Source: a virus. From it: a DNA stretch of 46,722 nt. Shown here piece by piece: positions 16,835-18,775 of this stretch (position 1 is the first letter of the stretch; the number at the start of each line of letters is the position of its first letter). The position numbers and the translations under genes are program-made. The notes beneath the pieces are model-generated. The model was not told the origin of the DNA, ran no database searches, and was given only the letters and a program-made list of their open reading frames with translations. The DNA lies in the UHGV virus genome UHGV-0200285. One strand, written 5' to 3'.

Positions 16835-18775
16835 ATGAAACATTTAAATGATTTCCCCAAAAGAGATAGAAATCACAGAATTGAAAGACTTGCAATATCA
16901 GCTTTTGAACATTTCCTTAGTGATTCGAACGATTTCTTTATTCAAAGTAAGGATATAAATGATTACGGCGTAGACTATCAACTCGAGATCACAACAAACG
17001 GTCAAGCAACTAACATTAGACTGTTTGTTCAACTAAAAGGTACTGAACAAGAGTTAAATAATGATGGTTCGGTTAGCATATCTGTTAACAGAGCCAATCT
17101 CAACTATCTATTAATGCACCCTTATTCGTTCTATGTGTGTTTTCATGCGCCAAGCGACACTCTAAAAATAACATTCGCGGACAGCGTGATTCGGAGTTAT
17201 GAACAATCTGAAAAAAAATGGATTGAGCAAGAAACTATAACTGTAAGATTCATTGATAATATATCTGAGTCTCGTTTGCACGAAATTGCAGAGGTGGCTA
17301 GGCTTAATGCTTTAGATAATCGTAATGCAAGGATAGAATTTATAACAAAGCCTATTTCAAATGTTAGTGCAGTTATAAATAAAACCATACCGAAGATACA
17401 TATACCAGAAGATAAAAAACTAGCCCATGAATTGCTTAATTCGTTATATGAAAATAATCATGATGATGTGATAAGTGCTAATTTTGATGAATTCTTAGCT
17501 ATTTTCGGTCCTGAACATCCGGCTATGATATTTCCATACATGTCAGAAATAAATAAAGCCATGGACAGAGTTAATGGTAATAAAAAAAGGGTATTGGATG
17601 GTATCCAATACCTCAGGAATAGAATTAATGAGGGTTACATAACTAAGGGAAGTTTATACTATTCAATAGGTAATGGATTTACAGCTCTTGGCAAGGATGA
17701 AGAGGCTATTCAAGAATATAATGCAGCTCTTAAGAAGATGACTGGGGCAGAAAAATTAGCTGCACAATGTTACAAAAACATGGGTAGTAGCTACTCAAAT
17801 CTCGGAAATGAGAATGAAGCATTTGAATGCTATAAGAAAGCACTTGAATTAGATCCAAACTTAAACGAGGCTAATTTAGCTGTTGGAATAATCCATAATC
17901 ATAGGGGTAATTATGAACTAGCATTAGAATATTTAGACATGGTGATGTTTCCAGGAATTTATCAGCATAAAATAATACATGTTACAAAGTGGAGAGTGAA
18001 TACTCTTTTTAATATGGGAGATTATCGCTCTGCATATAGAGAAATCAACAACCTATTAACCAGAAATAATAATGAAGAGGACTTATGGAAATGGTGCTTA
18101 ATGCTAGTTGGAACATTCTGTCGAACTTCGACTATTTCAGCCAAGCTAAGTTTGCCTTTTTTGAATCGTTTTTTAGAAATGTACCCGAATCACTCTGAAG
18201 CATCTAGAGAAATTCTATTAGTAAAAAATTACTTAAGAGTAAATGATAATGTAACTAAGTATTCTTATCTTGATTTTAAGAATGAATTTGAATTTAGAAT
18301 AAATAATATCAGCAGTGAAGATAGGGCTTTCTTATGGGATCGTATAGGTCATTGGGCACAGGATGAAGACGAGTGGGAAGATGCTGAGATGTATTTTCGT
18401 AAAGCTTATGAAATGGCAGGGGGTGAATATGGATATTGTCTCGGTGTGGCTCTGAATCATCTTGGTCGCTTTAAAGAAAGCTTGCCCATTTTGATTGAAC
18501 AAGCGGAAAAAATCCAACCTGATGATTTTAGCTGGTTTCAAGTCGCTATTGCCTACGAATTTCAAGGGTATATTCAGGAGGCTATTAACTCTTACAAGAA
18601 ATGTTTAGCAATCAATGAGAAAAACGAACTAGCATTGTTCAATCTTGGAGGCATTTACTGGAATTCGAGAAATTATGATGAAGCACGACATATCTGGAAA
18701 CTAGCAGTAGAATATTATCCTGACCATGAGCTTTCGCGTAAGCTTCGAAAGGATATTCCATTTATTTTAGATTGA
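16835..18775 (+). CDS. 646-aa protein: N-terminal PD-(D/E)xK-like (DUF4365-like) nuclease domain fused to TPR repeats; candidate defence effector
   Basis: N-terminal D..D-x3-E ... VQLK motifs (DINDYGVDYQLEI ... LFVQLKG); multiple TPR-like units (AIQEYNAALKK, AFECYKKALELDPN, ALEYLDMV, AINSYKKCLAINEKN, ARHIWKLAVEYYPD); no Walker A; gene and flanks strikingly AT-rich. Confidence 0.6.
   Translation: MKHLNDFPKRDRNHRIERLAISAFEHFLSDSNDFFIQSKDINDYGVDYQLEITTNGQATNIRLFVQLKGTEQELNNDGSVSISVNRANLNYLLMHPYSFYVCFHAPSDTLKITFADSVIRSYEQSEKKWIEQETITVRFIDNISESRLHEIAEVARLNALDNRNARIEFITKPISNVSAVINKTIPKIHIPEDKKLAHELLNSLYENNHDDVISANFDEFLAIFGPEHPAMIFPYMSEINKAMDRVNGNKKRVLDGIQYLRNRINEGYITKGSLYYSIGNGFTALGKDEEAIQEYNAALKKMTGAEKLAAQCYKNMGSSYSNLGNENEAFECYKKALELDPNLNEANLAVGIIHNHRGNYELALEYLDMVMFPGIYQHKIIHVTKWRVNTLFNMGDYRSAYREINNLLTRNNNEEDLWKWCLMLVGTFCRTSTISAKLSLPFLNRFLEMYPNHSEASREILLVKNYLRVNDNVTKYSYLDFKNEFEFRINNISSEDRAFLWDRIGHWAQDEDEWEDAEMYFRKAYEMAGGEYGYCLGVALNHLGRFKESLPILIEQAEKIQPDDFSWFQVAIAYEFQGYIQEAINSYKKCLAINEKNELALFNLGGIYWNSRNYDEARHIWKLAVEYYPDHELSRKLRKDIPFILD

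Follow-up and report, generated by a model that had tools for sequence, protein, structure and literature searches.

Nucleases of the DREN family, the family that Pfam lists as DUF4365, are mainly known as the Argonaute-coupled effectors of SPARDA systems, in which a DREN-APAZ protein acts with a short prokaryotic Argonaute (pAgo) partner and target DNA is sensed by means of a guide RNA. DREN is an indiscriminate DNase and also an RNase, and the isolated SPARDA DREN domain is monomeric and inactive, its activity being switched on by tetramerisation through the sensor scaffold (PMC12205087). The characterised DUF4365 nucleases cut without sequence preference (PMC10810196, PMC12205087), and active DUF4365 domains are cytotoxic (PMC11297309). 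In Avs proteins, oligomerisation of the effector is set off when sensors that resemble tetratricopeptide repeats (TPRs) bind a conserved protein of the phage, and the sensor of Avs7 is also found on Dsr1, an effector protein lacking an NTPase (10.64898/2026.01.04.697583). A further defence protein, Divona of Vibrio integrons, combines DUF4365 with crr6. Here we describe a gene of the UHGV virus genome UHGV-0200285 that encodes a predicted DREN nuclease and a predicted TPR array in one protein of 646 residues, and we consider it a candidate anti-phage defence gene. The whole stretch of DNA that was analysed, 46,722 nucleotides and hereafter the window, is a complete, circularly permuted lambdoid prophage. 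The gene, which we refer to as DREN-TPR, lies between its excisionase-like and integrase genes, and the product (WP_001546420.1) is named 'tetratricopeptide repeat protein' by NCBI.

The DREN-TPR protein resembles SPARDA in its nuclease: it belongs to the same family, carries the D...QxK site with identical spacing (19 residues from D to Q both here and in NbaSPARDA, whose catalytic residues are D41/Q60/K62; PMC12205087), and finds its best fold matches in the Protein Data Bank (PDB) among SPARDA chains. By analogy, its effector chemistry would be expected to be that of an indiscriminate DNase gated by oligomerisation. It differs from SPARDA in having neither APAZ nor a short pAgo partner, with a TPR array in place of guide-RNA/target-DNA sensing, and judged by its predicted domains it is not a SPARDA system. 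The likeness to Avs/AVAST and bNACHT proteins lies in the layout, an N-terminal nuclease effector and C-terminal TPR-type repeats encoded by a single gene on mobile elements. The difference lies in the centre, where Avs/STAND proteins have an NTPase (NACHT, NB-ARC or AAA_16) whereas the DREN-TPR protein has about 110 helical residues between the nuclease and the TPRs; on profile evidence it is not an Avs/STAND protein. Like Dsr1, it is predicted to consist of an N-terminal cell-killing enzyme fused straight to a long alpha-helical repeat sensor, with no NTPase and within one gene, but the effector of Dsr1 is a SIR2 NADase and that of DREN-TPR a DREN nuclease, and the DREN-TPR repeats are canonical TPRs and shorter. 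By analogy, the protein would be a functional nuclease counterpart of Dsr1, or an Avs protein minus its STAND module. Divona, PDC-M02A and the DUF4365 proteins of DefensePredictor use the same nuclease as a modular effector; they differ in their other C-terminal modules, and their similarity to the DREN-TPR protein is weak.

Domain architecture and family of the DREN-TPR protein

The cassette and the parts of the predicted protein have the following positions in the window:

16670..18853, plus strand: mobile single-gene cassette (165 bp upstream, the coding sequence and 78 bp downstream), defined by the Salmonella copy
16672..16734, plus strand: imperfect inverted repeat or hairpin upstream of the DREN-TPR gene, from folding energy
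16835..18775, plus strand: coding sequence of the DREN(DUF4365)-TPR protein, 646 aa, WP_001546420.1
16835..17254, plus strand: predicted DREN/DUF4365 nuclease domain, residues 1-140
16961..17038, plus strand: predicted catalytic motif D43-x-G45-x-D47 ... Q66-x-K68, invariant in homologues
17255..17614, plus strand: long helix (145-171) and helical linker or cap, residues 141-260, from the model
17615..18772, plus strand: predicted TPR solenoid of about 11 helical hairpins, putative sensor, residues 261-646, from Pfam, Foldseek and the model
18326..18535, plus strand: most conserved TPR patch, residues 498-567, from column identity

Pfam DUF4365 (PF14280, a member of the PD-(D/E)xK clan) matched residues 17-152 of the protein with E=4.9e-16 and 59.5 bits, well above the gathering cutoff of 24.3 bits, and the match covered profile positions 1-136 of 139. 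The signature DINDYGVDYQLEI...VQLK is present, and within it and around it D43, G45, D47, E51, Q66 and K68 are the same in all 54 homologues compared, whose identity is 43-85%. In the structural model D47 lies on beta2 and Q66 and K68 lie on beta3 (strands 45-54 and 57-70, respectively). Corresponding residues have been tested in related proteins: the catalytic residues of TmuRE include Q62/K64 (PMC10810196), and the toxicity of EAT16, a toxin of an extracellular contractile injection system (eCIS), needs the DxGxD...QxK residues D42/D46/Q66/K68 (PMC11297309).

Searches of PDB sequences with a full-length profile and of PDB folds with the full-length model returned generic TPR matches only and were uninformative on the nuclease. 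Because these searches were swamped by generic TPR proteins, residues 1-175 were modelled separately, and this model reached a pLDDT of 86.6. When it was compared with the whole PDB by Foldseek, the top twelve matches were SPARDA DREN-APAZ chains (9qcc, 9qbp, 9jsz, 9jt2, 9vx6), with E values of 6e-6 to 4e-4 and a TMq of about 0.57. A profile of the same domain run against PDB sequences with HMMER gave nothing significant, SPARDA chains included, and since sequence similarity went undetected in this way, the kinship with SPARDA chains is visible only through the Pfam hidden Markov model (HMM) and through the fold. From the profile match and the model together, we conclude that residues 1-140 are predicted to form a DREN/DUF4365 PD-(D/E)xK nuclease domain with an intact DxGxD...QxK active site, and nuclease activity is predicted accordingly from these residues.

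The remainder of the protein is dominated by TPRs. Residues ~250-646 matched TPR HMMs above the Pfam cutoffs (TPR_2 at 88.1 bits, TPR_1 at 81.5, TPR_8 at 75.7 and TPR_12 at 71.9), while NCBIfam returned sub-threshold TPR families only, PEP_TPR_lipo among them. An AlphaFold2 model of the full-length protein, built from the 54 homologues, had a pLDDT of 89.8 and a pTM of 0.73, and it shows an alpha/beta domain at residues 1-140, a long helix at 145-171, a helical connector and then a solenoid of about 22 helices. The proteins that Foldseek matched to this full model were all of generic TPR type: OGT, SPINDLY, consensus-TPR structures and APC/C subunits. Profiles and model agree that residues ~250-646 are, as predicted, a canonical TPR solenoid.

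Between the two parts, the linker at residues 141-260 is the least conserved segment, with a mean identity to distant homologues of 35% vs 53% for the nuclease domain. The 646-aa protein contains no Walker A motif, whether sought as [AG]xxxxGK[ST] or as GK[ST], and no NTPase family of Pfam, NCBIfam or PADLOC matched it. A hidden NTPase in residues 141-260 was considered and ruled out, given the lack of Walker motifs and an all-helical prediction. An initial annotation, made from the sequence of the window, had read the N-terminal ~150 residues as PD-(D/E)xK-like with DUF4365 as a possible family, had placed TPR repeats at 250-646, and had stated that there is no Walker A/B NTPase and that the protein is not of the Avs/STAND type; the profiles, the invariant motif and the fold matches bear out each of these points.

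Conservation along the protein peaks in the nuclease core (residues 41-100) and in the TPR patch at 498-567 and has its minimum in the linker. The patch comprises W501-D-R-x-G-H-W-A-Q509 ... W514 ... R522 ... G533 ... C535 ... W567, with a column identity of 0.79-0.86, and its WDRxGHWAQDE...W residues are conserved to the same degree as the nuclease active site. The segment that encodes it (window 18326-18559) is also the sole stretch with nucleotide similarity (67-69%) to alpha- and betaproteobacterial homologues. We infer that the patch is a putative ligand pocket or, alternatively, an interface for oligomerisation or autoinhibition.

A word-indexed search found 318 full-length relatives of 646-660 aa, all with DUF4365 and TPRs, in Alpha-, Beta- and Gammaproteobacteria. 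An exhaustive search with the nuclease-domain profile against clusters built at 50% identity matched 1,707 clusters at E<=1e-3, of which 569 remained at a cutoff of 1e-10 and 82 at 1e-30, and among the matches listed, short fragments aside, most were of ~640-690 aa. PHROG 22932, a group of unknown function, was matched over the full length of the 646-aa protein. Nuclease relatives of 520-560 aa have unrecognised C-termini, and shorter TPR versions also occur. A protein of 1,264 aa (P0228) carries a nuclease of the same DUF4365 subfamily together with NACHT/AAA_16 and WD40 beta-propellers, which is a STAND receptor layout with the nuclease as effector. Because such variants join the nuclease to different C-terminal modules, the DUF4365 nuclease is modular. 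Comparison of the DREN-TPR gene with the Salmonella and Klebsiella-plasmid copies gave an overall dN/dS of 0.10-0.11, indicating purifying selection, with 0.05 for the nuclease, about 0.15 for TPR residues 261-480 and 0.09 for TPR residues 481-646. As far as substitution rates can tell, the gene is functional and constrained.

The literature that we searched contains no text describing the WP_001546420 protein or the combination of DUF4365 with TPRs. Fig. 4E of the SPARDA preprint does draw, as examples, DREN fusions with TIR, with P-loop NTPase+WD40, with DUF2057 and with 'PEP_Tpr_lipo', and reads the TPR there as export or sorting. The last of these, WP_198151253.1, is left unnamed in the preprint and is apparently of the same architecture type as the DREN-TPR protein, and it may belong to the same family because the 646-aa protein has a sub-threshold PEP_TPR_lipo match. 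The architecture had been called undescribed and unnamed in the initial annotation; the second term still holds, the PADLOC matches being weak and N-terminal only, and the first does not, in view of the preprint figure. The candidate is thus uncharacterised and unnamed, and conceptually familiar: an effector without an NTPase joined to a helical-repeat sensor is already an established design.

A variable cargo slot between excisionase and integrase

The DREN-TPR gene is a one-gene moron whose composition is foreign and whose site is a variable cargo hotspot. It was found in 7 of 5,426 complete E. coli genomes, in all of them in the same prophage and at 99.3-100% identity, whereas the integrase of this prophage is present in 700 (13%). 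The gene is therefore not a conserved core gene of the lineage, a possibility that the initial annotation had raised against its own reading of the gene as a recently acquired moron at an accessory hotspot; that reading is supported by the 7 occurrences among 700 integrase-bearing prophages, by the alternative cargos described below and by the composition. The coding sequence has a GC content of 0.344 and a GC3 of 0.28, compared with 0.50 for the whole 46.7-kb window, 0.49 for the 10 kb to the left of the gene and 0.456 for the integrase gene, and the conspicuous AT-richness that had been noted against the flanks is thereby confirmed.

The slot was defined by comparing the window with five sister prophages that carry the same integrase. 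All five share the flanks yfdP-yfdQ-yfdR...xis on one side and int-yjjG on the other, and the breakpoints by blastn fall at 16603-16621 on the left and 18903-18952 on the right, giving a slot of ~2.3 kb with clean cassette edges. It was occupied in 6 of 6 prophages (the window and its five sisters), with a different cargo in each. The comparison of the int-xis junction among related prophages, which had been proposed as a check for variable cargo, thus gave six cargos in six prophages, and the accompanying statement that this position is normally empty of genes in lambdoid phages is wrong for this lineage. In the other integrase-bearing prophages homology breaks at at least 8 different points, clustered near the int stop codon. 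The slot, its flanking genes and the cargos of the sister prophages are as follows:

16354..16548 of the window, plus strand: helix-turn-helix (HTH) excisionase-like gene, 64 aa, left flank of the slot and outside the cassette, from homologue annotation and sub-threshold HMMs
16621..18903 of the window, no strand: variable cargo slot of the prophage lineage, from blastn against the five sister prophages
18938..20173 of the window, minus strand: convergent tyrosine integrase, 411 aa, right flank of the slot (context), from Pfam
L002 4459-5487, minus strand: slot cargo of 342 aa, sister prophage
L017 3186-4181, plus strand: slot cargo of 331 aa, sister prophage
L018 3128-4369, minus strand: slot cargo of 413 aa, sister prophage
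L020 3536-4351, minus strand: slot cargo of 271 aa, sister prophage
L019 3243-4261, E. coli K_EC180: slot cargo, a DUF4365 gene distinct from DREN-TPR and broken by a frameshift into parts of 132 and 188 aa

The K_EC180 gene has a different C-terminal module, and therefore the DUF4365 nuclease family has been captured independently at this slot. The four non-DUF4365 cargos belong to no Pfam family and had no convincing PADLOC match. We considered whether the slot is a hotspot for known defence systems and rejected this, as the cargos match no known system apart from DUF4365 in K_EC180. The slot is nonetheless a place to seek further systems, and the four non-DUF4365 cargos are unexplored candidates in a lineage whose integrase is carried by 13% of complete E. 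coli genomes.

Within the slot of the window the DREN-TPR gene stands alone, because the intergenic DNA on both sides of the coding sequence holds only mechanical open reading frames (ORFs) of <=30 aa and an Rfam scan of the locus returned no significant family. This agrees with the arrangement first described, a lone 646-aa ORF between an excisionase and a convergent integrase, and the boundaries of that ORF were exact. The 64-aa left neighbour matched HTH_17/MerR in Pfam below threshold only; its homologue in phage 2H10 carries an 'excisionase' annotation, and the protein is identical in the sister prophage of E. coli K_EC180. The integrase contains the Pfam domains Phage_integrase, Arm-DNA-bind_3 and Phage_int_M.

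The cassette also occurs outside this prophage. Window positions 16670-18853, a length of ~2.2 kb, are 83% identical at the nucleotide level to a Salmonella copy that lies beside SPI-1 invH (L003-L007), in an unrelated context. This Salmonella enterica gene, itself 85% identical, is situated in a variable, gene-poor stretch, where it comes after the gene of a Fic protein and that of a GNAT acetyltransferase, with downstream ORFs of no known family, and the stretch may be an accessory or defence islet. An identical Yersinia protein is encoded in three contexts: within a TrfA/TrbL element, at the end of a prophage of myovirus type, and at a distance of 4 kb from AbiEii. Among plasmid records, 12 carry relatives and 8 of these are conjugative; the neighbours there are Abi, VapBC, AAA-ATPase, HNH and DUF3800 genes. 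One relative lies between Prim-Pol and terminase genes of an unrelated viral contig. None of the deposited phage genomes carries the DREN-TPR gene. In 8 of 9 other contexts the GC content of the gene is below that of its flanks.

Distant homologues of 44-50% identity were likewise examined for context. PADLOC identified PDC-S35, a TIR protein, directly adjacent to the Pseudomonas homologue, and PDC-S59 with a HamB-like helicase near that of Ruegeria; it also called the AbiEii gene near the Yersinia homologue. The neighbours of the Bradyrhizobium homologue encode Mrr_cat and Peptidase_C14 (caspase-like) proteins. Across Salmonella, Yersinia, the distant homologues and the plasmids examined, no partner gene is conserved. 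A two-gene system was considered and rejected, since no neighbour is conserved across contexts and no ORF of >30 aa exists in the intergenic DNA of the slot. No antitoxin or immunity gene is adjacent, either among the ORFs of the slot intergenic DNA or in the contexts examined. There is no Argonaute gene in any context examined and no Pfam or PADLOC match to APAZ or PIWI. A methyltransferase gene is absent from the slot and none is conserved nearby, and Pfam detected no DNA-specificity domain.

Candidate defence function and alternative explanations

We propose that the DREN-TPR protein is a single-protein sensor-effector for anti-phage defence or abortive infection that is carried as prophage cargo, and we put the probability of this reading at roughly 0.55. 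The case for a defence role is circumstantial, drawn from the family to which the nuclease belongs, from the way the protein is built and from guilt by association. In the DefensePredictor table entries considered here, several further DUF4365 proteins of E. coli are predicted to be novel defence proteins.

In a lysogen, the protein would be made from its own promoter and held inactive as a monomer or in an autoinhibited form. When another phage or mobile element enters, the TPR array, perhaps by way of the patch at residues 498-567, would bind a trigger, which could come from the phage, as a conserved protein or peptide, or from the host, as a factor that infection has altered. Its binding would lift autoinhibition and/or nucleate self-association so that the DREN domains form an active oligomer, and this oligomer would then cleave DNA non-specifically, with the infection aborted and the cell lost. 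A step of oligomerisation is suggested by SPARDA, whose DREN domain on its own is an inactive monomer and gains activity when it tetramerises; we hold this specific mechanism tentatively and would give it somewhat less than even odds. Since the TPRs are uniform in length and slowly evolving, a conserved trigger seems more plausible than a fast-escaping one. Receptors of the RRNPP/AimR type, of which AimR is phage-encoded, pair an N-terminal output domain with C-terminal TPRs, and a small peptide bound by the TPR array shifts their oligomeric state. By analogy with these receptors, a peptide ligand might be an alternative trigger. The outputs of RRNPP/AimR-type receptors differ, being HTH or phosphatase domains and not nucleases, and no sequence or profile relationship to the DREN-TPR protein was detected, so that the comparison is one of analogy only.

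Extended to the whole family, the proposal is that DREN-TPR proteins may be widespread, unnamed, NTPase-independent intracellular pattern-recognition receptors, in which the invariant WDRxGHWAQDE pocket would bind a conserved protein or peptide, either of phage origin or from the host and altered by infection, and directly nucleate the DREN oligomer, producing an outcome like that of Avs or SPARDA with neither ATP hydrolysis nor a nucleic-acid guide. This wider claim is possible but, in our judgement, leans towards doubtful.

Several observations weigh against a defence function. 43CR, an E. coli protein with DUF4365 and DUF1817, is the one DUF4365 protein that was cloned (under pBAD) in the DefensePredictor study, and the part of the study's tables considered here records it as 'defensive = FALSE'; WP_001546420 is not among the entries examined in those tables. 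PADLOC-DB v2.0.0 has no model for the DREN-TPR protein: the best match was PDC-M02A at E=1.7e-6 over 83 N-terminal residues only, the Argonaute-associated Aga_REase model matched the N-terminal part weakly (E=0.004), and the Avs, Dsr and Shedu models did not match the 646-aa protein at all. A scan for promoter consensus sequences gave a count equal to the shuffled background, and the scheme above assumes that the gene has its own promoter. No diversifying selection was seen at the domain level, the TPR dN/dS being 0.09-0.16, and the uniform length of the family (646-660 aa) fits a conserved ligand and equally a housekeeping-type partner. Finally, the Cupriavidus homologue is located among ordinary metabolic genes.

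A nuclease next to recombination genes could instead be a DNA-processing accessory factor that serves mobile elements, resolving or trimming junctions in the manner of Hjc or RecU while its TPRs dock partners. The Hjc/RecU-like fold and the position beside xis and int fit this idea, but the gene is present in just 1% of same-integrase prophages, and the phage evidently does not need it, because 99% of the sister prophages are without it and have unrelated genes in its place. Some contexts lack a recombination module altogether, the neighbours are often defence genes, and the nearest structural relatives are the indiscriminate effector nucleases of SPARDA and not resolvases. We regard this explanation as unlikely. 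A protein that recognises foreign DNA directly, for example modified DNA in a Type IV manner, with the TPRs as scaffold or regulator, would confer immunity by restriction and not by abortive infection. The predicted nuclease is compatible with such a role, yet no DNA-recognition domain (such as SRA or winged helix) was detected in the non-nuclease part, which is TPR or otherwise helical; TPRs typically bind proteins or peptides, and the characterised DUF4365 nucleases are indiscriminate as to sequence. Direct restriction therefore appears rather improbable.

The intact catalytic residues, the toxic DUF4365 N-terminal domain of EAT16 and the location of relatives beside VapBC on conjugative plasmids would all be in keeping with a toxin, addiction or competition factor, a DUF4365 DNase that kills other cells or acts post-segregationally and uses its TPRs for delivery or chaperone binding. 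The contexts examined, however, contain no eCIS, no type VI secretion system, no signal sequence and no adjacent immunity or antitoxin ORF, and a constitutively toxic solo nuclease without an antidote could not be maintained under purifying selection, which leaves this explanation with a low probability. That the gene is a selfish cassette spreading like a homing endonuclease, by cutting empty target sites, we consider very improbable: a mobile nuclease gene invites the comparison, but its insertion sites have no common target, the E. coli slot generally holds unrelated genes, the gene is outside any intron or intein, and homing endonucleases do not have, as a feature, a TPR array of 500 residues held under purifying selection.

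If the sensor-effector reading is confirmed as defence, the DREN-TPR proteins would be a new named family among the few NTPase-less sensor-effector immune proteins, and DREN would emerge as an effector module of general use, one that a protein-binding TPR sensor can gate just as Argonaute coupling does. Established concepts would stay as they are, the design principle being known already. The family is compact, conserved and confidently predicted, which makes it tractable for asking how a TPR ligand switches a nuclease without ATP.

Upstream region and prophage surroundings

The 165-bp upstream region travels together with the DREN-TPR gene, and blocks of it are kept as far as Yersinia. It contains the hairpin at 16672-16734, which folds with -30.5 kcal/mol (z = -2.06), and inside the hairpin, ~120 bp 5' of the ATG, a poly-C tract at 16708-16716. 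The tract is C9 in the window; E. coli copies that do not otherwise differ have C7, C8, C9 or C11, and the Salmonella copy of the cassette has no such tract. This length variation could reflect slipped-strand phase variation of expression, or it could be a homopolymer assembly error. Three terminator-like sites were found, none in the intergenic DNA flanking the coding sequence and none above the shuffled background.

The prophage is inserted beside yjjG. Homology between the window and a host-flanked copy in E. coli 04-00955 (L001) stops at 20445, and position 20445 is taken as the attachment site (att) because that homology ends there. The 04-00955 prophage is otherwise ~99.7% identical, with 258 additional bases at window position 15952/15953, inside a DUF551 ORF, and a frameshifted integrase gene; in the window both the integrase gene and the DUF551 ORF are intact. 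Beyond the att junction (~20445), an ORF of 82 aa at 20685-20933 on the plus strand is DinI-like by eye. It lies within another AT-rich stretch, 20200-22200, with a GC content of 0.33-0.42, which may be a second accessory region.

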